From an uncultured Planctomycetia bacterium (GTDB lineage Bacteria; Omnitrophota; Gorgyraeia; Tantalellales; Tantalellaceae): 64,000 nucleotides of DNA. The stretch spans positions 1,680 to 65,679 of the forward strand of contig CAZGQR010000010.1 of NCBI GenBank assembly GCA_964527765.1, given 5' to 3'. The translations under genes and the position numbers were made by a program. Below, piece by piece: positions 3,088-49,549 of the stretch. The number at the start of each line of letters is the position of its first letter. Within the stretch, counting starts at the first letter, position 1. The notes beneath the pieces were generated by a model. It made no database searches. It saw only the letters and a program-made list of their open reading frames with translations, and had not been told where the DNA came from.

Positions 3088-3164
3088 GATAGGAAAGGAG
3101 AACAAGCAGATTTAAAGGGTGCTTAACCCAAAAGAGATACAAAACCTTCCTGTATCTCTTAAAA

Positions 3165-3214
3165 ATGTCCTCGCTTTGGGTCCTCCAAGCAGCCCGGGGC
3201 GAGGGCATTTTTTT
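3165..3214 (+). terminator. Putative intrinsic terminator after the truncated giant ORF
   Basis: Stem CCTCGC(3169-3174)/GCGAGG(3199-3204) followed by T-run 3208-3214. An upstream perfect 9-bp hairpin AGAGATACA/TGTATCTCT lies at 3133-3159. The loop is long, so this is only moderate. Confidence 0.4.
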
Positions 3215-3408
3215 AACTATCTCCTTTGTTTATAAGTAGTTATCTAATATTTTTCATATTTACCAATATTTAACCAGATTACCCAGATATTAAGAGTTTA
3301 AAAACCATAAAATTTATCCGATTTTCTTAAAAAAATAGCAGAAAATATACGATTTTAATAGAAAAAAAGCATGTATGTTAAGTTATAAAAAATTTAGAAA
3401 ACCCACAA

Positions 3409-3439
3409 TTGACATTCTCCCCATGTATGTTATTATAAT
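3409..3439 (+). promoter_or_regulatory. Sigma70-like promoter candidate for the 29.7-kb gene, inside a 489-nt strongly AT-rich leader
   Basis: TTGACA at 3409-3414 and TATAAT at 3434-3439 with a 19-nt spacer, which is slightly long. An 11-mer CATGTATGTTA is directly repeated at 3370-3380 and 3422-3432, flanking the -35. Confidence 0.4.
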
Positions 3440-3576
3440 TATACTTAATAAATAAAACAAAAAGCCAGACACTATTATGTTTTATAGACCCGAAGGCGGA
3501 TCAGCATAAAACAGGCAGGGATTTTTGTTATCCGGGCAATTTTAATTATTTAATAAGTAGCATATCTGAAGGACAT

Positions 3577-6500
3577 ATGAGTAGAAATAAAGCATTCATA
3601 AAAATTGTTTCGTTGGTCGTAGCAGGCATATTCCTCCATCAGCAGGTCCTGTGGGCTGCGGGCGACACGGCAGGTCTCACCAGGACCGTATCCGGTAAGC
3701 ATGAGATCCCGTATGCCGATACCCGCGAGGACGTCCGTATTTCCGATGGGCTTGCCCAGCTGGACGGCACATACACGGGTGAGGCAAAAGACGTTATTAT
3801 CAATATCCAGGACTGCCATTCCTCGCTTTCCGCGCAATATTCGATCGTGGATATCCTGAGAAACCTTCTTCAGGATTATGACATGAAGGTCATTGCCATT
3901 GAAGGGGGATCGGGATATCTGGACACTTCTTTGCTTAAAACTTTCCCGGACAAGAGCATCAAGAAAAAAACCGCTGCTTACCTGATGAAAGAAGGGAAGA
4001 TATCGGCCGGGGAATTCTTTTCCGTGACCACGGATGAGGATATTGCCCTGTACGGCGTTGAGGACAACGCCCTTTACCGGGAGAATCTTGAGATCTTCAG
4101 GGATATTCACGCAAGAAACCATGACAATATCGCCGTACTTGATGTTATTCTGGGCGATCTCAAGGATACCGAAAGCAGAGTATATTCGCAGGAATTGAAC
4201 CGCATGGTGTACAAATCCCGGCTTCACCGTGAAAGCAAGATAAGCTTTGATGTCTATTGGGATTTCCTGGAGAAGATATGCGACCGGACAGGTATTTCTA
4301 CCGACGAATATGCAAGCATCGGGAATTTCAAGGATTCGGTTCACCTGGAAAAGAGCATCGATTTCGGCGAAGCTACCTCGGAAAGAAAAAAACTGATCAA
4401 TGAATTGATGGAAAGCGCGACGAAGGAAGACATGGAAGAGGTGGTCACCAGATCGCTCTCCTTCGAAAAAGGCAAGATCGACCAGTCGGAGTATCACAGC
4501 TGGCTCCTGAGGTTTGCCTTGAGAAGAGGCATGGAAACGGGCGGGTTTCCGGAGCTTTGCAAATTCGCTGCTTATGCCGAGAGTTATCGAAAACTTGATA
4601 TCATAGGCCTGCAGAACGATATTAATGAGCTTGAGGGTAAAGTTCTCGAAAAACTTTTTTCTTCCCGGGAAGAGAGACAGCTCTACAGGCTCGTCAGGAT
4701 GACAGAGCTCCTGAAATCCCTGTTCGAGATAAAACTGACCGGCGAAGACATATCCTATCTGACGGCGAACATTGATGCCATAGACGCGGATGAGTATATC
4801 CGTTTTGCCGGAAGCGGGGAAGATGATACTTTGAATGACGCTGTTTGCCGCGCCCGCAAAAGCATGAAAGAGATCATTTTCGAGGCGAAAAGGGCCCTGA
4901 GGTTCTATGATCTGGCCGAGGAACGCAACCACGCGATGATAGCAAATACCGTTTCCGCGATGAGACGGGAAGATAAACACATTGCCGCCCTCATATCAGG
5001 CGGACATCATTCCGGAGGCCTTACGCGTATCATGAAAGAAAAAGGCCTCTCTTACCTTGTTCTCATGCCGAAGTTTTTCAATGACCGGTCCCGCCCCTAC
5101 GTGGCAGTCCTTACAAGAAAGTCAGGTCCCTACAGGAGGCTTGTTTCTTCGGGTGCTTACGACCTGGCCCTGGAAGCTTATTTTGACACGGGTGATCTCG
5201 GTAAGTTCAAAACAATGATGGCTTTTGCCGTCGGCCAGGCGGCCCTGGAGGGAAAAGATGTCCCGTCCGAGATAAAAAGCTGGATCGACTCTTACAGAAT
5301 GTGTTATGACAGTCTCTCGGCGGCAAGACGCGCGGCTATGGACTCGGAACCGGTAAGCCCCGAGGATCTGAAACAGCGCCTGCAACAGATCAGGGTGGTT
5401 GCTGAGGACGGACAGTCATGCAAGGTCCTGATAGGCGGCAGCGCTTACCGCGTGACCCCCGAGGGCGCAGAGGCAATATCCTCGGAAGAAACAGGTCCAG
5501 GCCTGCGCGGCGCGATGTTATCCGCTATCCAGCGTATATTTCTTCTGAAGGAAGGAATGGCAAAAAAGGCGTTGGGTCAAAAAAACGAGCCGCCCGATCT
5601 TACGGCCGGCCCTGATGCCATGAATCTGGGTTCGATCAATTCTTATGACAAGAAAACCCACAGGGACCTGCGCACCCGCCTGGAATACTCAAAGCAGGTT
5701 CAGATATGGGGCACGGGGATAAAAGATATAAGGTTCAGCAGGAAATACAGGTCAAAACTGATGAAAATAGATCCCAATCTGCCCAACGATCTTCACATCA
5801 TACTCATGGAGCATAAAAGAGCTCCCCCGGGTTCGGTAGAGGAAAGATTTCTTTTCTTTGATCCCAGGACAAAAAGATGGGTATTCTCCCATTCAGGCAC
5901 CAGGAGCCGGACCGGCAAGTTCGCCTATCTAACCAGGAAAGCCTTTGATGACCTGTATCAGACCGATAAGGGCAGGAAATTCCTGAAAAAATTAATGTGG
6001 AACGAGTACAGGCAGGCCACGGCAAAGCTGGAAGGCAGATGGACTGAAGATTATGACAAAGAGAAGACCTCTTCCCTGCGCGCTTTTGTAGAGGAATATC
6101 TTCGCGGTGTTGCACTTCAGACGGCAAAACCATCCGAACATCCTCAGGTGATCGTATCCGCTGATCCGAATAGATCCTTAAGAGAACATGTTTCAGAACT
6201 GCTTAACGTTGAGTCCGCAGAGATCCCGACCGGCAGGTTTCCGGACGGGGAGATAAAAGTGGTGGTAAAGGATCCGGAAGAGATAAAAGACAAAAACTGC
6301 ATGGTCGTGCAGGATATCAACAGCGACGAGGATTTCGTGAGTCTTCTGCTGATCATAGCGGGACTGAGGGACGCGGGAGCGAAAAAAGTCTCCTGCGTGC
6401 TGCCCGAGAAAATGCTGGAAAACAGTATTCTCCTGGATACGGTTTCATCGTTCGTGGATATTTACACCGCTGACAATTTCAAGTATCCTGCCTCATTCAC

Positions 6501-9500
6501 TCCGTACAGGCCGGAGAGGCCGGAGCCGGCCGGGCGCAGGAAGGCAAAAAAGAGCGAAAAAACCTATCTTCTTTTCACGAGAGACTACCGGAAACTCAAG
6601 CAGAAAGTTGCCGGCGGGCTGGTGAAAGCCGGGACCAAGCGCGACATGGAGATCAGCCACGTGAAGGCAAAAACGCTCGAAGAAGGCAGGGCCTCGGTCA
6701 GGATATCCCGGGATACGGAAGGCAAAAACTGCCTCCTGATACATAACACCAGGACCGCCAAGGGGCTGGTGGAATTGCTGATCATCCTGGAAAAGCTGAA
6801 AAGACAGGGCGCGGGCGAAATAGAGTGCCTTATATATTTCCTGGGATATGACCGCCAGCACGAGAATTATAACGTGAAAGAACACGGAGAGAACGCTTTC
6901 AGCGCGAACAGCGCCAAGTTTATCCTGGAGCTCATAAATCAGTACTGCGAGAGGATCTATACCGTAAACACCCATTTTATAAAAGAACCGAGCAGAGAAC
7001 CATACGGTTTTCCGGGGATCGAGGGCCTTGAGATAGTCAACTTGAGCGCTTTCGAGCATCTGGCCAGGTACTACAAGGAAAAGTACGGCCTTGAAAAGGC
7101 GGAACTTATCGGAGGCGATGACGGGGTTGCCGCTTTTCTCAAACCGGTAGCAGAAAAAATGGGCTGGGGGCTGCATTACCCCATAAAGAAAAGGATCTCC
7201 GTTGAAGAAGTCAGGTTCTCGATACCGGACGAATGGAAGCTTCCCGAGAACGGTGGCAAGGGAGCGTTGAAGGGGAAGGACGTGGTTCTTCTTGATGATG
7301 TGGTCGCCGGCGGCTCGACGCTGGTCAAGCTTGCCATCAAGCTCAAGAACGATTTCGGGGTGAAAAGAGTATTCGCGGGGACCGTGCACGGGAAACAGTC
7401 CAACAAGAAGCTGGCTTACTTTAGATCGCTGAAAGATGACCTGGGCCGCCCCGTGTTCGATGATATCATCGCGACGGATACGGTCGTATCCCCGACCAGC
7501 AAGGTCTCCATAGCCGAACTGATCGTTGAATTTCTGGAAGAAAGCCGCGGGATCGAGGAAACCGGACGCGGGGAAGACACCCGGCTGTTTTCTTTTCTGC
7601 CCCTGGCATTCCTGCCTTTTGCGCCGCTGGTACCGGGATTGGGCATCTTTACGCTCATGGCCACGGTCTTGCTTGCTGTTCTCTTTGCCGGAAAAAGCGA
7701 AAGAGTCGACATGTCCCCGGAAGATGCAGCATTACTCGGAGAGATAAGCAAAGAACTGGACAGATGCAGGGACAGCAGATTTGAGCGCACGCTGAACGTG
7801 CAAACTTACAACAAGGTAAAGTACCTTTCCTCCAAAGTCACGGGAGCAGATGACATTCTGCAAAGATTCGAGCGTTATTTTATCCTGACATCGCTTGTAT
7901 GCGCCCTGGATCCCGAAAAGATCCTTCTTACCCCTTTAAAGGAACACAGGGAATTTGTTGCCCTGTTCGTTATGGGATTCAACAAGGGAGAAAAAGAACC
8001 CTATTTTATTACCGCTCCTACCGATTTCAGCGCGGAAGTATGCCATACGGATCTCAAATGGGACAGGGAAATGAGCGTGCTCGGCCTTGTCCACTTCCCG
8101 AGGATGCCGATACCTGATTCCGCCGTTCCCGGAGATTACGTGGTTTTTTCGGGAGAGGAACTGCTGGGCAAAGTAAGCAGCACGAACAGTTATCTGCGCG
8201 GAACTCTGGCAAAAGGTGTTTTGTCGCGGGAAGGCTTCCTGCGGCTGGATCCCCCGGCGAATGAAGAAGAATTCCTGATGAGGAAGCTGGGCGATGCATA
8301 TTCGGATTCCGCACCGGAAAAAACCTATCATGAGCTTCTTATGGGAGAATATGTCAGCACGGTCGCTTTCCTGCTGGGGGAAAGCCAGGAGGAAGGCATC
8401 AATCCGGACAAGAAATTCTTTCTTTTTGATCCGGTAAAGGATATTTTCAGGGATAACGGGATACCTTTGCCCAAGGAGCTGACACTGGGCAGTTTCATGG
8501 AAGCGGTCAAGGGAAAGAAATTTAAATATATCAGGACCGAAGGCCTGCCCCGATATGCATTTTCACCCGGTAACATAAAAACCAAGATCAAAAGCAGGAG
8601 GGATGTTTGCGTTTCCGCCGCAAAGATGATAGCTGAGGAGATCAGAAAAAAGCCGGGTCTTGTGCTTGCCTTGCCGGCGGGCCGCACCCCCGGGGAACTT
8701 TATGAAGAACTGGTAAGGCTGCACGGGGAAGGATTGGACTTTTCGAACGTGAAGATCTTTAATCTGGATGAGTACGCGGGTCTGGGCAGTGAAGACAAGG
8801 GCAGTTTTTACCAGTACATGTGGGAAAAATTTTTGAGCAAGGTGAACGTCAGGGAAGAAAATGTAAGATTATTCAACGGGAAGGCCGAAGATCTTGAAGC
8901 CGAGTGCAAGTCCATGGAAGAGGATATTGAAAATGCCGGCGGTATTGATATCTGTCTTCTGGGCATCGGTGAGAACGGTCATATCGCCTTTAATGAGCCG
9001 GGGTCCAGTTTCTCGTCCGGGACAAGGGTCGTGGAGCTTCATCCTTCCACCGTGGAAAAAAGCAGATGCAAGGCGGGCAAAGCTCTTACCCTGGGCCTGG
9101 ACAACATAATGTCCAGCAGGAAGATAATACTGATGGCCTGGGGGACGTTCAAAACATCGGCGGTCAAAGGTGTATTTTATGGCCCCGCCTCCGAGAGCGT
9201 ACCGGCATCGGTATTAAAACAGCATCGGGATGTCACGTTTTTTCTGGACAAAGAAGCCGCTTTTTCAATAAAAAAAGAAGACCGGAAGAAGTTATCGGGC
9301 CTGAGCCCTCCAGCGGCCGATCAAACCGTTCCGTCCAAGGAGTCACCCGAAGACCGCGGAGACACTTTCCCTAAAAACATTTATTCTTTTCTTCCCCTCG
9401 CGCTTTTGCCGTTCGTGCCGGTTGTGCCGGGCCTGAGCATTTTTATGCTGGCCGGTATGATCCTGTTTGCCTTTTTCGCTTTCTCCGGAACGAGCCCGAA

Positions 9501-12500
9501 AGAAAATAAGGAAAATGTCCTGGTCGAATTCAAATGCAGCAAGGCATATAAAGGCGACGGTGAGGGCGGTATCATTTACGGGGAACGCCGGATAAGCAAG
9601 ACGCTCGATCGCCTGCTGAGCCCAAAAGAGCGTTCTATCTTTGACGGAATTGTAACGGATCTTCTGTATAATCCGAATATTGAGCGGATCGTGCTGAAAG
9701 AGAATGCCGGTTTCATTGCCGACCTGCAAAAAAATGAAAACGGATGGATCATGGAAATCGACAGGTCCGCCCTTCAGCATCCTCTCCTGGCGCAGTATTC
9801 GCGGGAACACGAGGAATACCTTTCTCATATTGACATAGATGCGGACGAAAGTCTGATCACCGAGATATACGGCCAAAGCTACACGCAGGAACAGAAGAAG
9901 ACGCTGGAGACATTGATGCGGGAGACCATGGCCTGGCTGTTTTCGCTTACCAGGCAGAGCAAGGATCCGGATTACCTGGCCTACCTGAAAGGGTCCTCTC
10001 ATCCCGCTCTTGAGGATTACGCGGAGCTGTTGGAGAAAGCCGGGGCAGTCAATGTCAGGGAGGAAAAAAGCGGAAGAACAGTAAGGCTGGTACTGGATCA
10101 TATTCTCGGCGCTTCCGGGAAAGATAATGTAAAAAAACTCTGCGCACACCTGAGGTCCGACGAGGATAACCTGAAACTTTTCTGCACCGTCATGCGGGAC
10201 GTCTTTAACGCCACGGAGTTCAATATCGCTTTATGCATGAATATGCCGCATTACAACGAGATAAGGGAAAAGGTCTATGAAAGCGGGACCGCGGAATTTA
10301 AAGCCATCCCGCTTTTAAAAGTGAGCGACACTCGAAGTAAGCCCGCCGACGAAATAATAGCCGGGCTTTTACTGCTTTTGCCGGAACTGAAAGATGACAG
10401 CATTTTCCCGGTCGTGCAGCAGGCCATGAACCTGATGAATCCTGATTGCCGGGAGTTTATCAGAGAACTGCTCACGCAGGCAAAAACGGTGAGACGTCTT
10501 GCGGCGGGTAAGGGCCCGGCGTACAGGAAGGCGTGCTGCCGGATGCGCTGGTACACGGAGACATTTCTCAGGCTCACACTGATCGTTTTGAGCCGCACCT
10601 ACAAAGACAGGCAAAAACGCGAAGACTCGCTTAAGAACCTTTTTGAGCTGAAAGTAGCCGTGGAAAAAGTGCTTGAAGACGAGAGACTGCCGGGTGAAGA
10701 GGAAGTAACGCTTGAAAAAGAAGATATGGACGTGCTTCGCAACCTTCTTCTGATCCTTGATTTGCAGGCGGGGTGCCTGTATCTTACCCTGAACGAACCG
10801 GAGAAGGCGATCGCGGTCATGGAACCATGTTTGAAAGAAGAACTGGCGGCACCGGACAGACATTCATTCATGGTGTTTATCGCCAAAGGTTATGCCGCGC
10901 TGGAGGATTTTGAGAAGGCGATCGACTACTGCAAGGGCGCGCTGGATATTTATGAGGAGATATCGAATGAAGAAGCCAAAGACCTGTACATGGAAATAGG
11001 CACGTATTACATGGAACAGGAAAAGTTTAATGAGGCAAAAAAGGCCCTTTTAAAAGCGCTGGAACTTGCCGGCGAGTCAGGTGAAATCATTTTTCACGAA
11101 CCGAAGCATTTTACCGGGAAGGACAATTATACCAGGACCACCCTGGGAACGATCTATAATCTTCTGGCTTCCTGTTTCACGCATGAAAACAAAGGTGCCG
11201 AGAGCATGCATTATATCAATAAGGCGGTTTGTTATGCTCCGGGTGAACCCGTACACAGCCGGACATTCCTGCGATTCCTTCTTTTTTACAGTGAGGTCGA
11301 CAGCGTCATGGAAGGCCTGATCAGCCAGGTCAAGCACCACCTGAAGATCGCCCCGAAAGACAGCGCTTTGTACGATATGGTTTTGAGGGGATGCCAAGGT
11401 AAACCTTCGATCTTACGGTCCGTACTGGAAATATTGCTTAATGATGAGACGGTAAGACGCGCGGATGCCCGTCCTTACGTGGTCCAGGAGAAGTTGTCCG
11501 ATGCATTTCACGGACTTTATGGCAACGGAGAAGATAAAAAATACAGGACAGAAGCGATCGGTGTCATCCGCCGCATACTGAGGACCAACAGGAAAAAGAC
11601 CGTTCAGAAAAACGCCAATGCGCTGCTGGAACGGCTTGGCGTGGGCCCCGGGGTCTATGTTTTTATTGATGCGGCCGGGAAGATCCCGTCTTTAATAAGA
11701 AAAGATTCACCCAGGAAGAAATTCCGCCCCCAGAAAGAGGTGGCTCCGCTCGTGGATATGCTTGACAAGATCGTCCCCGAGGATCTGGGGCTTCAGGAAC
11801 GCCGGGACATAATAACGTGCCTCGAGAAGATCATTAATAACGAAAGTCTCAGGAAACGGTCGGAAAGTAAAGAATATTGGGGAGAGCTGCTGAAAAGAGC
11901 GGAAACAAGGATCACGGATATGCTCGAAGGAATAGATACCCGGGATCTGAGCGCCAAGGCATGCCGGGATATGTCAGATTTCCTCGAGGATATCGTCAAT
12001 AACGAAAAGACGCAGGAACTGGTAGAAAAGTCGGGTAACAAGCATTTGGAAACGTTTTTGTACGCCGCAAGGACGAAATTAAAGGAATTCGGATTTCAAG
12101 GGCACGTTGCCGAGTATGCCCAGCGCTGGCCCGGCATTCCCCGTGAAATCGTTTCTTTGGTTTTAAACGGGGTTCTGATCAGAGAGGCCACGCTTACCTC
12201 GAAATGGGCGAGGAAGCTTATCAGAAAAGAATTGACCGCCGGGGCCTTGAAGATCAAGCTTGGGCGGCTGGAAAACGTTCTGAGGGAGCTTAATGGCCGG
12301 ACATCCAGCGAGATATCCTCCCTTGTCGCGTCGGATCCGGACAGGGTCAGAAACGGACAGGAACTGGACGAAAAAGTGATCGATGCTTTATTTGTTGCGT
12401 TTAAGCGGTTTCTTGAGGAAAAGGGCCGAAGGTGGATCCCCGAGACGGGCGCATGGAAGGATACCGATTCGGTCAAGAGCATAGTTAAACGATATCTGTT

Positions 12501-15500
12501 CGAGGAAAAGAACGTCGGCGCCGCCATGAGCGGAATTTTTAACCTGATAGCGGAATGGCTGATCGAGAAGGACAAACGGTACGGCAGGACCGACCGCGAA
12601 AAACTGGTAAAGGCGATATCGCAGGTAAGAGGACGTATCAGCGCCTCAGATCTGGAAGATACGCTTTTTCATTATTTCGATGGGGAATCAAGGGAAGCTG
12701 TTTCAGGGGAATTACCGGTCCAATCCGCGGCAGAAGAGGCGGAAGAACTTCAGCTGGAAGTGGACATCCGGGAGATCCCGCTGTTCGCCGCCTTATCGCA
12801 AGACCGGCAGGAAGAGATCCTCGGGTCCGAAACCCACAGAGAAAGGCTGGAGAAACTGGTAGAGGTTTTGAGCGCCGGATACGAGGGGTCTTCCGCTGAT
12901 GTCAAGGCGGAAATATGTAAATGGATCCCGGTAATTTATATTTCCCAGTTCCAGCCGGCCCTGAATGAATTTGCCGGCATGAGAGCGATCTCGGACGTGA
13001 TCGAAGAAGTTGCGATCAGGGATGGATATGGATGGATAGAGGGCGTGGAAGCGAATATTATCAAGAAGCGAAAGGGAGAACCCGTCAGGAAGGACGAGGA
13101 TGATATAGGGAAGGAGCTGACCAGGGATCTGGTCATGGTTATTATTGAGAGCTGGATAACGGGAAATTTTACCGAAGAGGAGTTGCGGGAGGACTGGAAC
13201 GAGCTGCTCTATGAAGCAAAGGATGAGGTTGAGGAGGCGTTGAGGAGCGGAGACACGGAGAAAGCGAAAAAAATAGTCACGGATGCAGCTGTCTATTCAG
13301 AAATCCAGGAAAAAGAACCAGGACCACAACCGGCAGGACCAGAACTTCCATCTGCGGAACCGGAATTGCTGCAGGCTGAACCGAAGTCCCTGCGACGGAT
13401 AGAACCCCCGAAGGAACATCCGCGGGAAGTTATAGCTGCGGACAGCCGGAAAGAGCTGATAGAACAGACCGTGAGCGATTATCTTGAAAGATATCCCGGG
13501 TGGGAAAAGGTCTTTCGTCTCAGCATATCGGATGTTGTCGCCAGGATAATAAACGGAAAAGACCTTACTTGGCGCAGGGATATGGACGAAAAACAGATAA
13601 TATCCCGGATGGCACGTAAGTTCATCGGGAACTATTTCAGGGAAAAAGGCGCCGAGTATGTCTTTGAATGCGAGTACTGGGACATGCTTCGCCACGATCA
13701 CGAAGAGGCCATAGCTCTGCTTGAAGAGACTTTAACCGCGGATGAACCGGTTGCCGCTCTGGAAAAAGCAATGCTTATCAGGGTCGCGCCCGTGTATCTT
13801 TCACGGTTTCAGCCGGCGCTGAATGAACTTGTGGGGGGAGAAGATGTCTTGTCCGGGCTTGTCGGAAATGTTGTTGAGAAAGTATATGAGCCGGAGAAGG
13901 GTAGCGCTCCCCGCGAAGATGCGGGAGGGGCCCTTATCCGGGATCTGATCATTCTTGTCGTTATCGAATATGTAAAGGAAAATTTCTCCCGGGAAAAACT
14001 GCAAAGCAACTGGCAAGAAAATATCTTTGCCGCGAGAGAAGATATCGAAAGCAGCCTACTGTACGGTTATGAGCAGATCACCAGAGAAGTGATTTCAAAA
14101 GCAGTCGATGTTCCGACGGACGTCGGCGGGCCGGGGAATATCTATTCTTTTATGCTTCTAGCGTTCTTGCCGTTCACGGGTATTGTGCCGGGGTTGAGCG
14201 TTTTGATGCTGTTAACTACGCTTCTTTTCGTCCTTTTCGCCCCGGGCTTTGAGTTCAGGCAAAAAGAATATGACAGCAGATATGCCGAGAGGCCCCTGCG
14301 CTTCGCTCTTTACAGGAAAAATACAGGAGAACGGGCGGCTGCGGTGAGGATTTTCTTTAAAAATACTGCGGGAGGGCACGGCGTCCTGTTTATAGATTAC
14401 CTGACGGCCCGCAGCCTGGAAGATGCTTTGGCGATAATGTTCGCTTTGCTATGGGGCAGGGAAGCCGTAAAGCGCGTCGCTTTCGGACGCGTGTTCATAA
14501 AAGGGATCAAAAAGAAAGAAGTCATCGACTATTTTAAAAAGAAAAAGCTGTTGGGTGCATGGAAGATACCGCCGATGTCCTTCGACCGGCTGATGCGATC
14601 AGGATTGAGCGGCGCAAGCAATACGGTGCCTTCGTCAAAGGTATACTCGGTCAATAGATTTCACCACTGGTTCAAGATAAGAAAAGCCGGGGAAGCGGCC
14701 CTGAAAAGGCTTAAAAAAGGTCGTATCAGATGGGCTGAAGCCACGAAAGCGGCGAAACGCTATTTAGTAAAACTTCTTGCCAAGGAACTCGGGAAAAGGC
14801 CGGGCGAGTTAAATACGCAGGATTTCGGGAAAAGGTCTAAAGTGTTCGGCAACAGGTCCTTAAGCGGTCTTTTGAGGTCATATGTCGGGCCGGCCAGACC
14901 TTCCGGTAAAGGTGCTCATATCAAAGGGCTCAAGGCGCTGAAAAAAGATCTGGGGATAAAAGACGTTCTCGCACGGATCATTACAGAGAAAACTATCCTG
15001 AAAAGATTTAAAAGGGGATATGTTACGTGGTCAAACACCACGAAGAAAGCCAGGATCTATCTTGTAGAACTTGCCGTCAGAGAACTCGGCAAAAAACCGG
15101 GCGAACTGACCACTAGTGATTTCGGCAAACCGTTCAAAGTGCTCGGAGGTAAATACCTGAGCGGGCTTTTGGAATTCTACCAGAGGGTAAATAAATTTTC
15201 CGGCGAAGAGGGCGCGGGCGCCAAGGCCCTTAAGGCGCTGAAGCAGGACCTGGGTATAAGAGACATTGCCGTCGAGATCATTACGGAGAAAACAGTCCTG
15301 CAAAAGCTCAGATGGGGCCGGATCGACTGGACAAAAACCACAAGGAAGGCAAGGCGCCATCTCGTTGAAGTTCTTGCCAGGAAGTGCAGAAAAAAGCCGG
15401 TAGAGCTGCGCCAGGAGGATTTCAAGAAAACCTCAAGAACATTCGGTGATAAAAATTTGATCGGCCTTCTGGAGTTTTATGTCAGGAAAAAATCCATTAC

Positions 15501-21500: not shown

Positions 21501-24500
21501 ATTTGCCGATCTTCGGGATCAAAACATGCTTGAGACCAAAAATGTCCGGGACAAATTCAGGATTATAATCGACAGGGTACGCGAACTATCCACTTATATC
21601 CCCAGAGAACTTCCTGCAGCGGCCCGTGAACGCGTACACGGAGGCCTCATAAAGGACATAATGAAGATGTACCCGAGGCTCGGACTATCCGATCTTGTTT
21701 CTCACGTTCACAGGGAAATAGAACTTGCGGAGGAGATAGCCGGAAGGATGGGGCTATCGGAAGAGAAAGTGCTTACCCTGAAACTTGCGATACTCGTGCA
21801 CCATCTGGGCCATCGTTCCAGGGTAGGCGAATACAGGGATGAGTATATTAAGATCAGGTCCGCAATGCGGGAAAAGTACCCCGGCGATAAGAGTAAATTA
21901 TGGCATATCCAGGATGCGGTCAGGGATCTATTGGAAGAAAAAAATGTTAAGAACGTTCCGAGAAATATGAGATTCGGAATTTTTTGCAAAGCGATAGGCG
22001 GACTATTAAAGGAAAAGGGGCTTAACAGTAAAGACCATCTTAATGAAACACAGGCGATGATAGTCCGGTCGATATTCAATATGAGGGAATACGCGCTGAA
22101 TGTATTTGAGGGTCTCGATACAAGTCTTTCGGATAAAGCGAGCGAAGATATGAAAGCGTTATTTGAAACCGTTCCGGAAAGCGTAAAGAGGGACGTGAGA
22201 ATGCTGCTCAAGTATTACGGCAGGTACCGGGAGTTCAGAGAGGAACTCCGGGAGGACGAAGGGCTCATCCGCATGGAATCGTCCATTTCTCCTGAAAAAA
22301 TGAAGCAGCTTATTTCGATAATCAGAATATCAAGCACATTTACCAACAGGCTGGACAGGACGGTCCGGGCGGAACTGCGAAGGGAATTAACTGATTCACT
22401 CTCCGAGGCGATAGAATTCATCATTAAGGATATCGAGCTGGAAAAAGAAGAAGGCGAGGAAACCCTGGAGGCCGTCAGTGAGCTGCTTAACGTGCTTAAG
22501 GACTTCGGGAGGGATCCGCGTATTTTGGGCGAGCTGAATAATCTGCTTGACGAGAAGGGCGGGCAACTGAGGTATAAAAACAGCATGTTCTTGAGATATC
22601 TGAACTCCGACGTTGATCTGGCACCGGATAACTGCAAGGGGGTAATAAGAAATTATCATGATTATGAGGAGGGTATTACCATAGGAACATATTACAGGTG
22701 GTCTACATCATGCCTTCGGGCCGGTGTTTTTGCCGGGGTCATGGCCGTAATCACGGGTTATGGTCCGGTGGTATTTCCCGGCGTTTTAGTTGTTCCTTTG
22801 GCTTTGTGCAGCGTTTTATTGCTTTTCTCGAGTTTATGGTTTTTCCTGATAGCGGAAAGGTGCAAGGAAGCCTACGAGGTGGGGTTCGTCGGGAGATGGC
22901 ATGAAATGCTTATTGATGGCCTGGCAATCAGCGCGTATCGACCCGATGAGATCGTTCAGGCGGCGAAGGAACTCGTTGATAAAAATCCTGAAGATGGAAA
23001 GAACAAGGCGGACATATTTCTTGAACAAATGGCCGATCTGACGGGCGAAAAGGTATTGCTGTTCAAAGAACGCCGGATAGCGGAGCTGATCCATAAAGGC
23101 TTGCTTGAAGACGCGGAAAAAGAAGGCAGGGGAGGAGAGTATCTTAAACTGGCGGGAAAATTGTTGAGATGGAAATACCCCGATGACGAAATCAAAGTGA
23201 GGATCAAAGAGCATGTGCAAACGAAAAAGGACCCGAATGAACTGTGGGATATATATGAATTTCTCAGCCTGCATATCACTGAAAAGATCTTCTCGGATGT
23301 CCTGTTCAGGCTGATGACCGTAAAGGTCCTTGATGAACCAAATACCGAATTAGAGAGCCTGGAAAAGGCAGCCAGAGATGAACTTGAGAAACGGCTCAAA
23401 ACAGAATATGCGGAAGCTTATGCCGAAATAAGAAAGTCATTATGGGGCAGGGGTAATGTCAGTAAAAAGAAGATCCATAAGTTTATATCCGAGTATCGCA
23501 AGCGCAGTGAAGCAAGACCGTACAGGGTTTTGAGAAGAAAAGAAAGATATGCGATTTTTCTTGAAGCAGCGGCTGAAAAGATGGGTAAAATTGAGCTGAG
23601 CGACATTGAAAAAGACATAGCCCGGGCGATATTCAAAGGACGTGAATGCACAAAGAAGGACTTTGAGAGAATGGCCTCCCGTCGGATACATAAACAGGCG
23701 TCGGAGCGCGTCATAGCCAGGCGGCGCCCGCATTTCGGCATTCTTGAGATCACGGATTATAACGCGTTTTCCATGTTGCCAACTGTGGTTAAAAAAATAA
23801 TAGAATTGCAGGATCTATATGAAAATCAGGACAAATGCATGCTCTGTTCATCTTTTCCATGTTACCGCTATTATACCAGTGAAAGGTCAGTGGCAAAATG
23901 CCTGAACGAAAGACTTATTGATGACATGCCGATGGCCAGAAAAGAGACCCTCAGGTTCGATAGGAGCAGGAAAGAACAGTTTGAGCTTAAAGGAGACACA
24001 TGGGAATGGAAGGAAGGGGACGGAATAGCGCTTGTAGGGGATATAAGCAAGGATCTGAAAGATGCTATCGGCGAATTACAGGAAGAGCTGAAAAAGAAAT
24101 TCAGCACCGGGAGATTGCAATTAACACCAAAAGATGAGCTCCATTTTACCGTAGCTATAATCAGGGATAATACCGCAGGCCCCGTTAAAGATACGGAAGA
24201 AAAGGAAAGAAAGGCCCTTATAGAAAAAACAAGGAATATCGTGATAAAGGCCCTGGCCGAAAGAAAAGTCGGTTTAAAGGTGAGTTTCAGCCTGAAACAT
24301 GTTGTTCTTAATAATAATGCCGATATCATTCTCATCGGCGAAGTGAGCAATCCCCTGCTGAACTATGTAAGGACCAGCATGAGGGAGGATCTGGATGCGG
24401 TCAAAAAAGATATAATTCACGTGACGATAGGAAGGATATTCGACAGGGACATAGAAGGAGATGAGGTGGGAATACTGACGAATATAATAAAACGGCACGG

Positions 24501-27500
24501 AGATGACAGAAAGTTCTCTTTTGAGGTCGGCGGCGTAAGGAAGGAATTTTCAGATCTGTGCCTGCATATCTTTGACCAGGCACAGGAAGGACAAAAAGAA
24601 AAGTACCGCGCGATCGAGATCCCGGGATACGCACAGCGCCTGATGAAGGAAAAACTGGAAACCCCTGAAAAGAAAAGGCCGATCAGCAGGATCGTAAGTT
24701 TATTCAAGAATATCCTGGATGATGTCAAATTCCTCCTGCGGCCTTATTTAAAGAAGAAGTTAAGGTCGTTCCGGAAGGCGACGAAACAAGCCGGCTCGGA
24801 AAAGACTTCCCGTGATCTAAAAGGCCCGAAAGCCGAGGAAACTAACCCTTTGATACAAAATCTTATAAGGGAAAATAAAATAGCCGAGGTCTTCGTGAAA
24901 GAAGGGCGCCTCGCAGCTTATCCCGTTAACTTGGTTGATGGTTACATGCCCGGGGGGGCGCATGAGGATCTTTTCGGGGACCCGATAGATATCGATGAAT
25001 TATTTAGCGCGGCACAGCAAAAGAACATAATGGACTGGATACGAGAGCATCGGCCCCCCGACGGCAAAGACTGGCAAGTTCGTTTTCGCATATTATTGGG
25101 CGACACTGCGCTTGGATGGAAGGATAACGCAGAACACTCCATCATATCCCATGCCGGATACCACGATAGATGTATCTATATAGGCCAGCATTTGCTCGCG
25201 TCCTTATTTGATTCTCCCGACGATCCTGTCCGAAGAATGCTTTTGGACGAGGATGAATACAGACATCTGACAGACATACATTTTGACTGTCGTGCCGACG
25301 AGGCGGCCTACAAAAAAAGATTGGAAGCTGTTGGCGAACGCATCAGGGAAGTCGCATTAAAGGTCAATATAAAGAAAGTCATGGAGAAAGATGTTCTCGG
25401 CAGGGACCTGGTCGGGTATCAGAAGCTGGGTCCGGAAAATGTCCTGGAAGCCGAGAAGAACGCGAAAGAATTCATCGATACCATTTATAAGATCATACGA
25501 GCCGAGGGTAAAACATTCAGTGACAGGGAAAGCCTGGCCAGGTACCTCAGGCGAAGGTTCGGCATACGTAAGTTCATCATTGCCGGCGGTAAGGGAACGC
25601 GGTTCTCTCCCGACGGTATAGTGGTCAAGCAGAATTTTAAACCGGATAACTACAATACCAATATAAAACAATCCAGGAAGTCGGCTGCTTTCGGGAAACT
25701 TGAAGATGTGGTCGTCATCGATACCGTGACCGCTTTTCACATCCTCAAGGAAGACCTCAAGATCCCGAAAAAGATGAAAAAGGACATGCAGGCGAGGCTC
25801 GGGTCCGTTTTTAGCGATCTCGTCAAAGCCGGGGTCGTCGAGAAGAACAGGAGCCGGGACCTGTGCGCCGCTATAGGCAGGATTATCGAGGAAAGCGCGG
25901 ACCGCACGCGCCGCCCCGACGGCCTGCGGGATCTGGCCATGGTGATGAGCATGGCGGCGGAGGAGGTCAGTAAAATCATGGGAAAGGATAATCCCGTGGC
26001 TGAGTTTTTGGTGGATAAAATATCGTACGCCATCTTCAAGGAAGTCATGGCCGAGGACGGTTATGTGGATGACGATAAAAAGGACGAGCTTTTCGGAGAT
26101 GACTGCATAGTGATCCTTGATTCCGGGGAAGGTCACGGCAGCGCTTACGTAGAAGCGCTAAGAGAACTGGATGCAATGGGAGAATTGAAAGATGCGCGAT
26201 ATTCCGTCATTGTTCATGCTGACACGCCGGGGTGGGGTCTTGATAAATACCCGAATTCGGTCTTTATCTCATATCTTAAGACGGTGAATCTCGTATCGCC
26301 GGAAGCGCGTGAACTGCCCAAGGTCACCATAGCGGTGAAAAATCCCATGGATGGCCGGGCCGGGGGCCGCGCGCGTATTTTCATTGACAAAACGGAAAGA
26401 TTCGGAAATATCCCGATGGCTATTAAAGAGTGGAATAATATGACCCCCGATGAACAGCAGGAATCAAATAAAATGGCCGAGGCCAGGGACCCGTACTGGT
26501 TTACGAACGCCAATATATTGATCTGCGATACGGAATGGACACAGAAAAACAGCGATGTGCTCTGGAAAGAATACCGCCATGAGCTGGGCGAAAAGACCAG
26601 GCAGAAACAGAGGCCCCTGGAGCGCTGGACAAGCGATTTTCTCAATATCGCGGCCGCGGAATACGCAAAACGCGTACAGAGGGACCCCGACACCCCGCCG
26701 TTCACGCGTCTTGTATCCATAGGACAGATCGCCCCGAATGCCAATAAAACGCTCCAGCGCGCGCTCGATTACAGGGATGATCTGCAGGAAGAGATAATCG
26801 CGAAAATAAAGAGGCTGGGCGTTGAAGTGGATAAGGACGTAACAATAGCGATTTCCGGAAATGACGTGGGGCCGGGTTTCGACCTGGATGAGGTCATCAG
26901 GAATATTTTTGGCGACGACGGGAACGAGGGAGCAAAATTCGGGAATACCAGGCTGAAGGGCAATATCCATCTCGGCAGTGAGGTAAGGATAGAAAAAGGA
27001 GCCCGGCTGGACGGCACAAGGAGATGCGTGTCGCTTACCGGGAAATGTGTCGTCAAAAGCGGGATCGAATTGGACGGGGTCGTGTCCCCGAATGGTGCCA
27101 GGAAAATAGAAGATACCTGGATATATGACGAAAATGTCTTTTACAAGCACACAAAAACGCGCATAACAGGATTTCCGTTCCAGGACGGCAGAACCATAGA
27201 GGGGGCAAGGGTCCGGAACGTGAATTTCAGTGAAATCGGACTTATTGCTGATAAGAGCACCAAAGTATATCTTGTCAGGGAAGACAGAAAAGAGGAGCGC
27301 CGGAAAGCCGAAGAAGAAGTATGGCGCAGGATCAAAGCGGAAGGAGGAAGAGAATATCCCGCAGAGAGAGCGGTGGCGTACCTCAATTATGCGCGCGGGA
27401 TACTGGTTCCCGTGTCGAATGAACCGGAGTCCAAGGCTGTCCGCAAGAAGATCGATATCGCCCGTGCATTTGCGGAAGCCGCGCTTGACATAGATAAAGA

Positions 27501-30500
27501 CAATGGGGAGGCGCGCGATCTTCTGGCCGAGATAGAAAAGCTTGAAACAACGGTGATCCTCAGGAATATTTTCGGGAATGAACGCTACGGCCGAAAGGTG
27601 ATAGACCAGATATTCCTGTACGGGGAGATCACTCTGGACGAAACGGCCAGGGTCGAGAACGGGACCATGCTTGACGGCCGCGCGGGTGAGATCGTTCTTC
27701 TTGGCCAGACACGCGTGCAGAAAGGTGTTCATATCAAGGGAGTCAAAGCGATAGACACGCGCTTTGCCGGCAAGAAGTATCTTGATATTTACCATTATGA
27801 ACAACCGGCTCATGAGAAAATCGCGTTCTTTAACTCGTCATTTGCGAATTCCTGTGTCGAATATTCCGGAAAGGTCGAGAACTCAACGGTCATCAATTCT
27901 TATATCACCAGCGGCGCGGAAGTGATCGAGTCCGACGTGAAAGATGAGATCGTGGTCGGCGATGATGAAATAATAGGACGGCGCCTGGATGTTAAGAATG
28001 ATATTCTGTCGACATCGATCGAGGCGGAAGAAGGAGTATGTGAATATACCCCGGGCGCTTACCGTCTGGAAGAAAAGATGCCCAGGGACCGTGATGAGAT
28101 CAAGGGATATCAGGTTTCTTACGCCAGGAGGTTATACGGGAGATTTATTGATGACGAACTTATTTTAAACCGCATGCTGGAAGACACGAAACAGTTCCTG
28201 TACAGTAAAGTGATCGACAGGTTCACACTGCAGCAGATCAGGCGGTACATGATCGCCAAGATAATGGAAAATATCAAAGTGTATTATCAGGAACGCGAGC
28301 CCGATCTCCTTAAGGACTTCCGCCCGCTGGTAAATAATCTCAGGGCTTACGCGGAAATACCCATGAAAGACATAGCGGAACTGGATGCCGGAGACAAAGC
28401 GCGGGCGAGAGAGCTGTTCCGAAAAATGGCAATACAGGCGATCCGTTCCAATATTATAGATTTTTCCATGGATCCGAAAGCCTTTGACCTGGAGCTACTG
28501 TCGTCTGCGGGCAGCGGTGAAGGCAGGAACTTTGAAAAGTTTCTTGATAAATATACCAAAAAGGAATTGGGGATCGACGGCTTCGATCACTTCGAAGAAA
28601 TGGTCTTCGGCCCCCGCAAAGGAACCTTTTTGTTCTTCACGGATAACATCGGAGAGGCAGAATTTGACGCGTTGATATGGGGATTTCTTGCCAAAATGGG
28701 GCACACCGTGGTTGTTGCGGCAAAAGACGGGTTTTCCTTCGCGGATATCGATAACAAGGGAGTGGAAAGCATTGTAGAAGAGCACCCCCTGCTGAGAGAA
28801 TATAGAAATGCCGGCAGGATCAAAGTCGTCAAAAGCGGTTCCTTATCCGAGGGCGTTTTCCCTCATATGTTCGGCGAAGAACTTAGGGACGTTCTTAAGG
28901 ACAAGGGACTGATGGCGATCATTGCGAAAGGCCAGGCAAACCTATTCACACTTTCCGCCCGGAACAGGATCAAGGTCCCGGTTGTCGCAATGCTGCTGTC
29001 TAAATCGTTGACGTCGAATCTGGTGACCGGGATTTCTCCGGAAAAGGACAAGGACAAAAAAATCTTCTGGCCGATCGCAGCGGTGGTTCCGGGAGGAGCC
29101 AGTATAATGGACTACGAAGGGGAATTGGGTAATTTCGAGGGGACCATTGAACGGTTCGGCAGGCTGCACGAAGAGATCAAACGGACCAAAGAGTTGGATT
29201 ATTCCGAAATACCGGAGATAGCGGAAGGCCTCCTGGAGAGCAACATAAAGAGCGGTTTTCTAAAAAAAGAATACCGGAAAGGCGTAGCTGAGGAACCGGT
29301 GGAAAAAGGAGCGCCGATATACAAACTGTTGGACAGGTCGGACGACCCTTACGTCCAAAAGATAAGAAGTATTTTAAAGCTCAAGAAGGCATTCGCCTGC
29401 ACTTTATGCAGGATCCCGTATATGTCCAGAGAAGCCTCCAGGTCCATTACGAAATACTGGGAATTTTCTGTTAATCCCGAACCCGTGTTTGATTCGCAGA
29501 TCATCGCGATCCACCGCAGGCACATAAATCAGGGAGCGGTCAATGAGAATTACTATTTTGACATGTTTCGGATATTGGAGAACCTCGGAGAATGGCAGGT
29601 AAGCTGGCCCAGCAGGACCGGGACCAGGTTCCCGGAACATCTGCACGCGCACATGTTCAGACGGGAACGCCCCATGCCGGTAGAAGAGTATTCACTTGAA
29701 CCCATTTGCCGGGACAGGAAAGGTAAAGGTGTGGTTTATTCCGTAAAAGATTATCCGGACAGGGATCATGCCATAACTGCTTTTGTTGTCCCGGGAAGCA
29801 TGGAAAAGCCCGGTATATTTGCAAAGAGGTGCGCCGATCTTGAGACTATAATAAAGGGTTTTGGATACGATGTAGATAAGTTTATCACCAGAAGCAAGGG
29901 AGGAGAATTTAAGGTCTTTTTCTATCCCAGGATCGGCGGGCTCAGGAGCGATGTGGGGCCCGTTGACGTGAGCGGCATCTGGGTCCTCTCGAGAGAAGAA
30001 CAGTACAGGGATTTCAAGTTAGCGGATGTCTACGATCTTCTCTCGGAAACCACACTCAATATGTACAGTGCCAGTCACCAATCATTGGCTGATGCCGTCA
30101 AGAGACTTTTTTATGAATCCGAGGGCATAGGCCTCTTTCCGCCCAGCATGGACCTGCTTGTGACCGATAGGTGCAATCTGCATTGCAAGGTGTGCTGGGG
30201 GTCGTTCATGCCCAGGCACGAATCCGTAGGCACGGAAAAGCAGAAAAGGATGATAGATATCATGCATGAGAACGGTATGAGGCGTATGATCTTCACGGGC
30301 GGCGAGCCGCTTCTTGAAGCAAATCTGGCGGACCTGTTAAAGCACGCGAAGGAAAAAGGCATAACCACGCAGCTGTTTACGAACGGCCTGTTGATGGATG
30401 AGGCAAAAACCGATGAGATCATGCCGTACGTGGATATGATATCATTGTCGCTTGACGGGTATGATGACCAGACAAACAGCCTGAACCGAAAGCCCGGCCA

Positions 30501-41875: not shown

Positions 41876-41927
41876 CGATATGCCGCCGCGCGGTGCAACC
41901 GCGCTTTACGTAAGTATATAAAAATAA

Positions 41928-41959
41928 AAAGGGTAGGTGAATAGCCTGCCCTTTTCATT
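41928..41959 (+). terminator. Intrinsic terminator after the 8.4-kb gene
   Basis: Stem GGGTAGG(41931-41937) / CCTGCCC(41945-41951) with one G·U pair, a 7-nt loop, then TTTTCATT. An additional GC hairpin lies at 41887-41904. Confidence 0.5.
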
Positions 41960-42121
41960 CTATATAAATATATACACCTATATAAATGTAAGTTATATCG
42001 GCATGCGTTTAAACCTTTTATAAGGTCTTTATAATATGATAAGTTGACAGGGTAAGCGAATTTTTGTAAAATAAGTTCGCCTTTCTTCCTGTTCGAATAT
42101 CCGGAAAACCAAGGACGGTTA

Positions 42122-43030: not shown

Positions 43031-43069
43031 AAACGCGATATGTAATACTGGAAGGAGCTTGCGCGGGTC

Positions 43070-43921: not shown

Positions 43922-43933
43922 AGAAAGGAAACC

Positions 43934-45574: not shown

Positions 45575-45595
45575 TAGCAAAAAGGAGGTCGTAAG

Positions 45596-46186: not shown

Positions 46187-46225
46187 GACCCGAAGCATGT
46201 AACCTAAAAAAAGAAAGGAAGAAGG

Positions 46226-48222: not shown

Positions 48223-48270
48223 TATCGGCGGTGCGATAAGCAGTGTCTTTTATGTAAAGGAGCGCTTGTT

Positions 48271-49530: not shown

Positions 49531-49549
49531 CCGGAGAAGAGATCTCATA

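Follow-up and report, generated by a model that had tools for sequence, protein, structure and literature searches.

Giant open reading frames (ORFs) are common in Omnitrophota (PMC10066038). Here we describe one such gene in a window of 64,000 nucleotides (nt) from an uncultured bacterium that carries the label Planctomycetia and is placed in the Omnitrophota by GTDB (assembly GCA_964527765.1, contig CAZGQR010000010.1, positions 1,680 to 65,679 of the forward strand). The window is this whole stretch, and all coordinates refer to it. The gene encodes a protein of 9,895 amino acids (aa), called the giant below, with an N-terminal domain (the head) and a C-terminal domain (the tail) that recur in relatives. 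Since the gene before it carries the same tail and the gene after it a related head, the window holds three consecutive members of one family:

1..3087, plus strand: upstream gene, cut by the window edge, with a PEP-utilising-enzyme domain and the tail of the giant (39% identity)
3409..3436, plus strand: promoter-like site TTGACA-16-TATTAT, TG-extended, 11/12, about 140 nt 5' of the start codon of the giant gene
3577..33264, plus strand: giant ORF, 9,895 aa plus stop codon
33473..41875, plus strand: downstream gene, 2,800 aa, starting with a head (28% identity), then PGM/PMM and PMI domains; no tail

The translation of the giant ORF has no internal stop and the window contains no N; a stop-free stretch of 9,895 codons cannot have arisen by chance. 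An AAGGA Shine-Dalgarno sequence lies just 5' of the ATG at 3577, and this start codon is backed by an alignment in which the N-terminus MSRNKAFIK matches the annotated starts of homologues. A codon table was trained on ten ordinary genes of the window and applied to the giant gene cut into 49 tiles of 600 nt. Frame 0 scored highest in 49 of 49 tiles, at 0.16-0.4 bits per codon, which is the range of the reference genes. This means that the giant gene contains no non-coding filler and no hidden frame change. The ordinary genes of the window are of normal size and terminate at the usual stop codons, from which it follows that the genetic code is standard.

The most trivial source of such a protein would be a chimeric contig or the misreading of several genes as a single one. 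An independent Logan assembly of SRR6963352, however, contained the same gene with a 9,895-residue product. Overlapping stretches of five assemblies from different sources (ENA, two JGI, two Logan) agreed with the window with 0-1 mismatch over 3-28 kb; all compared assemblies are short-read, and among the overlapping stretches only the Logan one reached the giant gene, covering its last 10 kb. This agreement makes a chimeric assembly very unlikely. As the single coding frame, the standard code and the identical head-to-tail layout of complete relatives (see below) also argue against an artefact, we give that explanation next to no credence. The claim of one uninterrupted 29.7-kb gene, made in an initial annotation of the sequence, is thereby upheld. 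Two antisense ORFs are present on the minus strand within the gene, at 3550-4980 (476 aa) and 26464-27813 (449 aa); they are most simply caused by the purine-rich coding strand, with GC and AT skew positive throughout, and are not taken as real genes.

The head comprises the first ~640 aa. Its homologues were 36 Omnitrophota proteins with 31-60% identity and one distant Elusimicrobia protein (n = 37). With a single peptide pattern, at least 293 stretches that encode a head were detected among the GTDB species representatives. The 79 head loci listed came from 55 assemblies, with up to four per assembly, and all 79 belonged either to Omnitrophota metagenome-assembled genomes (MAGs) or to PVC MAGs with an automatic 'Planctomycetia' label. 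In 63 of the 79, the head ORF extended beyond the 10-kb flank, about 33 of these already being at least 3,800 aa long, while the complete head ORFs among the listed loci measured 345-3,445 aa. MAGs encoded several head proteins, each with different domains after the head: HEAT, HAD, aldo-keto reductase with B12, B12 with radical S-adenosylmethionine (radical SAM), cellulase, ZnuA, metallophosphatase or SecA-PPXD. The cargo that directly follows the head differed even among the closest relatives. The resemblance to Omnitrophota giant genes seen by the initial annotation is borne out by these data, as all close relatives come from Omnitrophota MAGs. The head, the tail and the modules of the region shared with the nearest relatives are as follows.

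3577..3660, plus strand: N-terminal signal-peptide-like helix, MSRNKAFIKIVSLVVAGIFLHQQVLWA followed by AG, from hydropathy and the family alignment
3739..5496, plus strand: head, aa 55-640, with an alpha/beta core at aa 55-166 and 444-532
18973..33261, plus strand: conserved core and tail, aa ~5133-9895, collinear with P0041, P0042, P0045 and P0046 at 25-55% identity
19996..21957, plus strand: copy A, a degenerate HIT-like/radical-SAM/HD twin with LHFHLF, no cluster cysteines and VHH for the HD dyad
24043..24456, plus strand: 2H (LigT-like) phosphoesterase, 26.5 bits against a threshold of 23.3, with HxT motifs LHFTV and IHVTI
24811..25353, plus strand: copy 2 of an unknown unit X, 41-47% identity in relatives
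25477..27981, plus strand: nucleotidyltransferase-like module (aa 7301-7905) with the IIAGGKGTRFSPD signature, then beta-helix-like repeats (aa 7773-8135)
28306..29004, plus strand: ARMT1/DUF89 damage-control phosphatase, aa 8244-8476, 56.4 bits against 25
29395..29811, plus strand: HIT-like (DUF4922) module, copy B, 22.5 bits against a cut-off of 23.6, with HLHAHMF
30151..30864, plus strand: radical-SAM module, copy B, aa 8859-9096, 78.5 bits against 29.5, with CNLHCKVC (aa 8866) and GGE
31105..31926, plus strand: HD phosphohydrolase (LLHDIG; HD at aa 9177-9224, 25 bits against 22), then an HD-like HHD segment
31939..33261, plus strand: conserved tail, ~430 aa, recurring in relatives

The tail was found at the C-terminus of P0003, a protein of 1,863 aa that consists of head and tail, and also in L039, L066, L019, L062 and L043 and in P0041, P0042, P0044, P0045 and P0046. 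Its AlphaFold2 model was poor (pLDDT 55.9, pTM 0.30), and a tail profile gave no meaningful match in the PDB. The tail-gap-head arrangement of the window recurred in at least 10 of 61 other loci. In L009, L010, L024, L025, L028, L032, L038, L039, L066 and L075, a long ORF with the tail at its end is followed after ~0.3-1.1 kb by a gene with a head, and the window shows the same arrangement. These tandem arrays raise the speculative idea that tails may dock onto the head that follows. Taken together, the giant can be assigned with high confidence to an Omnitrophota-specific family of head-cargo-tail proteins, within the class of giant multi-enzyme proteins already reported from this phylum.

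In the downstream family member, PGM/PMM is represented by domains I and III and PMI by its catalytic domain, and the gene lies 246 nt 5' of a mannan-utilisation set on the same strand. Together with the downstream gene this set spans 33473-50782 and consists of two ABC permeases, two GH113 mannanases, two CBM27-like proteins, a ROK kinase and a solute-binding protein. The cargo of the downstream gene therefore matches the neighbouring pathway.

Structure prediction gave clues to the nature of the head. An AlphaFold2 model from 27 sequences (pLDDT 79.8, pTM 0.71) showed an alpha/beta core with a parallel beta-sheet fold, interrupted by a helical insertion of ~280 aa (aa 167-443) and with a small beta domain behind it. 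Invariant in the 27 sequences were D79-x-H81, E109, R450, N457 and H478. The catalytic set of RRSP is formed by Glu-3900, His-3902, Glu-3930, Arg-4001 and His-4030, and Bcr135 has the pair His-85/Glu-113 (PMC6254334). The His-to-Glu spacing was 28 residues in the head (H81-E109), in RRSP (H3902-E3930) and in Bcr135 (H85-E113), and the Arg-to-His spacing was 28 in the head against 29 in RRSP. Based on the model and these spacings, the head probably has a fold of the TIKI/TraB/ChaN/erythromycin-esterase type; that it is also catalytically active is predicted with somewhat less assurance.

The head was not recognised by sequence profiles of Pfam, NCBIfam or the PDB, and a profile of the head, either complete or reduced to the core by removal of the helical insertion, matched no TIKI member, no TraB, erythromycin-esterase or ChaN family of Pfam and no PDB chain. 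Foldseek searches with the head model likewise returned nothing significant, because the helical insertion dominates the model. The head thus differs from the TIKI superfamily as described (Tiki, TraB/PrgY/GumN, ChaN, erythromycin esterases, HopBA1 and RRSP) in having no sequence-level match, in a core split by the ~280-aa helices and in an Asp at the position of the first Glu of the catalytic set. Moreover, TIKI members stand alone or serve as one effector among many, whereas here the domain heads proteins of several thousand amino acids (kaa).

Behind the head, complete relatives allowed us to tell conserved parts of the giant from lineage-specific ones. In P0041 (6,030 aa), P0042 (6,059 aa), P0045 (5,209 aa) and P0046 (4,985 aa), which are complete from head to tail, the head is followed directly by the collinear region. 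These relatives lack the stretch that separates head and core in the giant. The giant can therefore be described as the conserved layout of 5-6 kaa into which ~4,500 aa are inserted. The order of the core is HD, the degenerate HIT-like/radical-SAM/HD twin, 2H, unit X, the nucleotidyltransferase-like module, beta-helix, DUF89, HIT-like, a viperin-like radical-SAM module, HD and tail.

A tiled self-search for internal protein repeats showed that part of this core is duplicated: aa 5474-6078 (copy A) aligns with aa 8628-9218 (copy B) at 27% identity (E 3e-63). Copy A was degenerate in every orthologue, its HD domain at aa 6042-6127 scoring 12.7 bits. In copy B, the HD dyad LHD(L/I)G was always kept, and the H.H of the HIT-like module was conserved in every orthologue. 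The two HIT-like modules listed by the initial annotation therefore both lie within this larger duplication, one being degenerate and the other just below its cut-off with an intact motif. Similarly, one of its three HD-like domains exceeded the threshold of 22 bits and two did not (20.1 and 12.7 bits), in agreement with its description of two as clear and one as degenerate. In P0045 (aa ~3990-4100) and P0046 (aa ~3660-3800), radical-SAM copy B is without the three cysteines and GGE, and the adjacent HIT-like and HD motifs are kept. The radical-SAM module thus became a pseudo-enzyme independently in some lineages. Overall, the comparison of the cores means that module order is under constraint, that an old pseudo-enzyme twin has been retained and that radical-SAM competence depends on the lineage.

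In the giant itself, viperin was the best-scoring radical-SAM family. NF038283 matched at 1.6e-25 over 85% of the profile and the pVip model of PADLOC at 5.9e-30, and the top PDB chains were viperins. The score for NF038283 was 89.8 bits, half of the NCBIfam cut-off of 180 and hence below the score of the viperin family. The module thus shares the CxxxCxxC and GGE motifs with viperin and prokaryotic viperins (pVips), and differs from them in being embedded in a giant beside HIT-like and HD modules, without a defence locus, and in the loss of the cysteines in two orthologues. A role of this module in anti-phage defence was considered and rejected: the head, the tail and copy A had no PADLOC matches, and no defence context surrounds the gene.

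For the nucleotidyltransferase-like module no significant profile match was obtained. The weak signals were alt_bact_glmU (0.057) and, in relatives, NTP_transf_3 (0.038), Hexapep (0.27) and LbH regions of the PDB (0.09-0.8). The signature IIAGGKGTRFSPD, which includes GGKGTRFSP, was invariant in seven relatives, and G38 and a downstream Lys, K51, were invariant in the alignment of the relatives. While a word-indexed search with aa 7301-8230 found no relatives, an exhaustive search yielded 30 representative relatives of the ~600-aa module. Stand-alone relatives of 650-1,040 aa combine the nucleotidyltransferase-like module with a following DUF89 domain, as in the giant, and a profile of the DUF89 relatives matched PDB entry 2g8l at 1.1e-15. 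The nucleotidyltransferase with beta-helix proposed earlier is accordingly without significant profile evidence and has an invariant signature and weak concordant profile signals in its favour; the region aa 7301-7905 is probably nucleotidyltransferase-like.

The insertion carries a different set of modules, of which the second HD-like module reaches into the beginning of the conserved core:

5524..18972, plus strand: insertion of ~4,500 aa (aa ~650-5132) between head and conserved core
6124..7542, plus strand: phosphoribosyl pyrophosphate (PRPP) synthetase (Prs) module, a partial extra N-domain at aa 850-943 and a complete Prs at aa 1020-1322
8563..9306, plus strand: NagB glucosamine-6-phosphate deaminase module, motifs FNLDEY and GENGHIAFNEP
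10762..11271, plus strand: TPR repeats, above the Pfam threshold
14674..15861, plus strand: four diverged tandem copies of a ~100-aa lysine/arginine (K/R)-rich unit, aa ~3700-4095, from tiled protein self-comparison
17290..17832, plus strand: first copy of the unknown unit X, sharing 30% identity with copy 2 (aa 7079-7259)
18544..19296, plus strand: second HD-like module, aa 5003-5165, Pfam HD 8e-4, 20.1 bits against a threshold of 22

The Prs module scored 150.5 bits with TIGR01251 (cut-off 113) and 1e-23 with Pfam Pribosyltran_N, and remained below the cut-offs of the equivalog models. It has the PRPP loop LLDDVVAGGST, and its nearest solved structures are archaeal class III Prs enzymes. NagB reached 83.3 bits in Pfam (threshold 27) and 2e-50 to PDB 2bkv, the NagB of B. 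subtilis; with TIGR00502 it obtained 213.2 bits (3.8e-63), narrowly below the equivalog cut-off of 236.9. The helical K/R-rich unit follows the pattern EKTxLxRFxRG…TKKARxxLV…GKKPxEL…DFGK…GLLEFY…ALKxDLGIxD. It matched no family, and no tandem repeat was present at the DNA level, which confines the tandem repeats of the initial annotation to diverged protein units. The unit might bind nucleic acid or membranes. No relatives of the insertion were found in the family loci or among the representative hits, and a metagenome scan for the linker-plus-Prs region gave no non-identical relatives.

At least nine distinct families were thus identified on the chain by profile (Pribosyltran_N, Pribosyltran, Glucosamine_iso, TPR, HD, LigT_PEase, ARMT1-like, DUF4922 and Radical_SAM). 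The profile search that the initial annotation had called for placed Prs, NagB, TPR, one HD, LigT/2H and Radical_SAM above their curated thresholds. Profile matches, motifs and hydropathy together agree with its picture of a membrane-threaded protein with at least ten enzyme-type modules around nucleotide, sugar-phosphate and phosphoester chemistry, and its module coordinates were accurate to within about 0.1-0.15 kb. The head and tail, which define the family, and the DUF89 domain were not among its modules.

A protein of this composition could also be the product of accretion, in which the ORF acts as a sink for captured gene fragments that are fused in frame, decay slowly and have little joint function. 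The degenerate copy A, the cysteines lost from radical-SAM copy B in two orthologues, an insertion without relatives and a fast turnover of cargo would all fit such a history. It leaves unexplained, however, why 29.7 kb are stop-free with native codon usage in every tile, why most modules retain intact catalytic motifs and why different lineages have kept 4,700 aa in the same order at 25-55% identity with GGKGTRFSP invariant. We therefore regard mere accretion as very improbable.

The topology of the giant bears on where its modules could work. Membrane elements were called by Kyte-Doolittle hydropathy only. Besides the N-terminal helix, seven internal hydrophobic elements were found, three being proline-rich elements of ~35 aa and four being pairs of ~19-aa helices:

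7585..7689, plus strand: hairpin 1, proline-rich, LFSFLPLAFLPFAPLVPGLGIFTLMATVLLAVLFA, from hydropathy and self-comparison
9379..9483, plus strand: hairpin 2, proline-rich, 47% identical to hairpin 1
14140..14244, plus strand: hairpin 3, proline-rich, from hydropathy and self-comparison
15883..16080, plus strand: hairpin 4, two ~19-aa hydrophobic helices, from hydropathy
18277..18408, plus strand: hairpin 5, from hydropathy
19348..19503, plus strand: hairpin 6, from hydropathy, shared with P0041 and P0042 at the corresponding position
22720..22836, plus strand: hairpin 7, from hydropathy

Hairpins 1-3 are near-identical, with the pattern IYSFLPLAxLPF..VPGL.. and a central proline/glycine turn, and they occur only in the insertion and, among the relatives examined, only in this protein. 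Each could dip into the membrane and return, cross it once as one long segment, or serve as a site of processing. Hairpins 4 and 5, both helix pairs, lie in the insertion as well. As every internal membrane element is a hairpin and thus makes an even number of passes, the soluble modules would all share one side of the membrane, provided that the proline-rich units do not span it only once. We also considered whether the VPGL motif, hydrophobic segment and basic residues of these hairpins constitute sorting signals of the exosortase/archaeosortase type, and this was rejected as no NCBIfam model matched even at E <= 10.

Several observations suggest that the common face is cytoplasmic. The chemistries of Prs, radical-SAM, HIT-like and nucleotidyltransferase modules require ATP or other nucleoside triphosphates (NTPs), SAM, an Fe-S cluster and a reductant. 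Lys and Arg were scarce in the hairpin loops (1 in 60 aa) compared with the flanks (31 in 210). In addition, the PMM/PMI domains of the neighbouring head protein stand beside the set for mannan import with its ROK kinase, and the products of that set are cytoplasmic sugar phosphates. Cargo placed directly after the head in paralogues was tried as a guide to topology and discarded as contradictory: P0013 has B12/radical SAM and P0008 an aldo-keto reductase in this position, and P0027 has ZnuA. By inference we lean towards the cytoplasmic face, at close to even odds.

These considerations lead to the explanation that we favour. The giant would be an array stapled to the membrane, most of whose enzymes are competent and whose substrates are nucleotides, nucleotide-sugars and sugar phosphates. 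It would belong to the head-cargo-tail family, with all soluble modules on one face of the membrane, probably the cytoplasmic one, and its head would probably be an active hydrolase, either a peptidase or an esterase. That most modules are competent is proposed because of the matches above curated thresholds together with intact motifs, the invariance of GGKGTRFSP and the conservation of LHD(L/I)G in copy B. We put the probability of this statement as a whole at roughly 0.6.

A number of findings weigh against it. In shape the N-terminus resembles a Sec signal peptide that can be cleaved, and a (V/I/L)-W-A site is conserved in it; the hydropathy profile shows no hydrophobic segment between the N-terminal helix and Prs. 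Tiki and PrgY, which are relatives of the TIKI fold, are extracytoplasmic. In paralogue P0027 the domain next to the head is a ZnuA of periplasmic type, and paralogue P0015 contains a GH5 cellulase. The cluster cysteines of radical-SAM copy B, present in the giant, P0041, P0042 and P0047, are lost in P0045 and P0046; as copy A is a pseudo-enzyme too, catalysis is not uniformly constrained. No single pathway joins PRPP synthesis, glucosamine-6-phosphate deamination, NDP-sugar formation and radical chemistry, and ~47% of the giant protein is unannotated. Finally, published DeepTMHMM calls for a relative of 147 kaa put its enzyme content on the outside of the cell (bioRxiv 10.64898/2026.06.07.730766). 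The only evidence for coherence at the level of a pathway is the conserved core and the recurring pair of nucleotidyltransferase-like module and DUF89. The cis-assembled metabolic machine of the initial annotation is consequently sustained by the collinear core of ~4,700 aa and weakened by the missing pathway, by the position of Prs and NagB in an insertion without detected relatives and by the pseudo-enzyme copy A.

The same N-terminus allows a reading in which the chain is exported. The signal would carry the protein out, the hairpins would anchor it from outside, and the head and cargo would act on or in a host or prey, where NagB, HD, 2H and synthesis of chain terminators by the viperin-like module would deplete or corrupt the pools of nucleotides and cell-wall precursors, in a manner resembling MARTX or polymorphic toxins with their variable cargo. 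The signal-peptide-like N-terminus is indeed conserved throughout the family, with a K/R n-region, a short h-region and a QQ(V/I)xWA motif. Secreted effectors with a TIKI fold exist, namely RRSP in MARTX toxins and HopBA1; cargo after the head is variable between the closest relatives, with several paralogues per genome, and includes ZnuA and cellulase; and the literature regards such proteins as extracellular and linked to predation. On the other hand, the Fe-S cluster, SAM and reductant needed by a radical-SAM enzyme and the ATP needed by Prs are not available in the periplasm, and Sec would have to export an unfolded 9.9-kaa chain that is loaded with Fe-S outside the cell. Neither does the reading fit hairpin loops in which K/R residues are scarce, unlike in the flanks, or a C-terminal region of 4,700 aa that is conserved and collinear, unlike toxin tips. 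RTX repeats, an autoprocessing cysteine protease and immunity genes were absent from the Pfam scan and the genes of the window, and PMM/PMI cargo next to a sugar-import operon fits the metabolism of the cell itself. We consider an effector array unlikely.

In paralogue P0015, lipoprotein-signal-like segments flank the GH5 cellulase on both sides within one long ORF, at aa 818-843 (VIAMAFSGC) and aa 1208-1233 (VIMMALASC). Some cargo may thus have retained signals of its own for export or lipidation.

The proline-rich hairpins bring up another possibility, which is compatible with either topology. The giant may be a polyprotein, cut into its enzymes by the TIKI-like head or by the signal peptidase of the host cell at the hairpins, so that one promoter serves many enzymes. 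The head has the full set of two His, two acidic residues and Arg of TIKI peptidases, the three proline-rich hairpins form a repeated junction element of conserved sequence between modules, and paralogue P0015 contains the internal lipobox-like segments. Self-cleavage has been proposed for the C39 or S8 peptidase domains found at the start of other Omnitrophota giants (bioRxiv 10.1101/2023.11.21.568195). A cleavage-site consensus was not found, however, and the hairpins match no curated model of sorting signals; the proline-rich hairpins are confined to the insertion and do not occur in the conserved core, and the TIKI fold is also found in esterases and non-enzymes. Processing of this kind is therefore doubtful, clearly more so than export. 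An extended form of the same thought, which we offer as a long shot, is that head-cargo-tail proteins correspond in bacteria to the membrane-threaded polyproteins of viruses or to assembly lines. In this picture the head peptidase would cut at or near the hairpin junctions or in a neighbouring protein and the tail would dock onto the head of the next protein. If true, Omnitrophota would build megadalton membrane-bound enzyme chains from interchangeable cargo, which would amount to a general mechanism for giant proteins.

To place the membrane-stapled enzyme array among known systems, we compared it with previously described giants. Class 1 of Nielsen and Lui (2026), the 'multi-enzyme metabolic cluster' giants, is characterised by PGM/PMM, radical SAM, HD, HIT, HAD and ROK domains together with transmembrane (TM) helices and signal peptides (bioRxiv 10.64898/2026.06.07.730766). 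The giant is from the same phylum and, like these proteins, carries many enzyme Pfams on one chain with none dominant, including radical SAM, HD and HIT, with PGM/PMM in the neighbour. It also shares TM helices that make up ~2% of the residues, the appearance of a signal peptide plus TM helices, diverged protein repeats without DNA tandems, and CAZyme and sugar-import genes nearby. At 9,895 aa it falls 1% short of the arbitrary 10,000-aa cut-off of that catalogue, and no type II or IV secretion genes lie within the window. That preprint, like the one discussed next, treats Pfam content only, and it makes no mention of a TIKI-like head, a tail, a collinear core, Prs or NagB. Apart from the length cut-off the protein fits this class.

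The enzyme-rich and TM-rich 'Archaeovorins' of Omnitrophota described by West-Roberts et al. (2023; bioRxiv 10.1101/2023.11.21.568195) resemble the giant in phylum, in their many TM regions and enzyme-type domains, in an N-terminal region without identifiable domains and in carbohydrate import genes nearby. By contrast, SecA DEAD/PPXD, C39 or S8 peptidase, glycosyl transferase, glycosyl hydrolase, methyltransferase and NUDIX domains were not detected in the giant ORF with Pfam, SecA PPXD being found only in paralogue P0036, and the giant is 3-9 times shorter than the >30,000-aa proteins of that study. Because multi-enzyme Omnitrophota giants already appear in these two preprints, the statement of the initial annotation that the protein matches no described pathway assembly does not hold. 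What is new relative to both is the TIKI-like head, the tail with its tandem tail-head arrays, the collinear core with a pseudo-enzyme twin and the Prs/NagB insertion.

Outside this phylum, MARTX toxins are likewise very large polypeptides with variable cargo and several unrelated enzyme domains, of which one, RRSP, is of TIKI type. The giant differs from them in that Pfam found neither RTX repeats nor the cysteine-protease autoprocessing domain, and in its metabolic cargo, internal hairpins and conserved N- and C-terminal modules. With CAD, AROM, fatty-acid synthase and the non-ribosomal peptide and polyketide synthases (NRPS/PKS) it has in common several catalytic domains per chain and a conserved order of core domains. 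Those systems, however, are soluble and carry out consecutive steps of one pathway, whereas the giant is without a linking pathway and carrier domains and is stapled to the membrane.

Further downstream in the window, a tRNA-Leu(CAG) gene (55172-55258, minus strand) is followed by smpB (55402-55857) and tmRNA (55859-56244). Past the tmRNA the GC content drops from ~0.49 to 0.38-0.44, and this stretch, extending to 63153, encodes a MerR-type protein, an MgsA_C-like protein and a type I restriction R subunit (60367-63153). The low-GC stretch next to the tmRNA is probably an inserted genomic island. The type I restriction gene at 60-63 kb was rejected as defence context for the viperin-like module, since it sits in this separate island.

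Omnitrophota giants are among the largest known proteins and occupy a considerable part of genomes that are very small. In hundreds of such genes, the N-terminal region that is dark to Pfam resembles, on the basis of the model, an active hydrolase of TIKI type. The order of 4,700 aa of enzymes is conserved across lineages, which speaks for selection on the array as a whole and against a random fusion. Enzymes of cytoplasmic type behind a signal-peptide-like N-terminus pose a paradox of topology that is met in the literature too, and the PMM/PMI domains of the neighbouring protein beside a mannan-import operon tie the cargo to the sugar metabolism of the cell itself. Should the modules prove active, membrane-tethered megaproteins may be where these bacteria carry out essential steps, PRPP synthesis among them.

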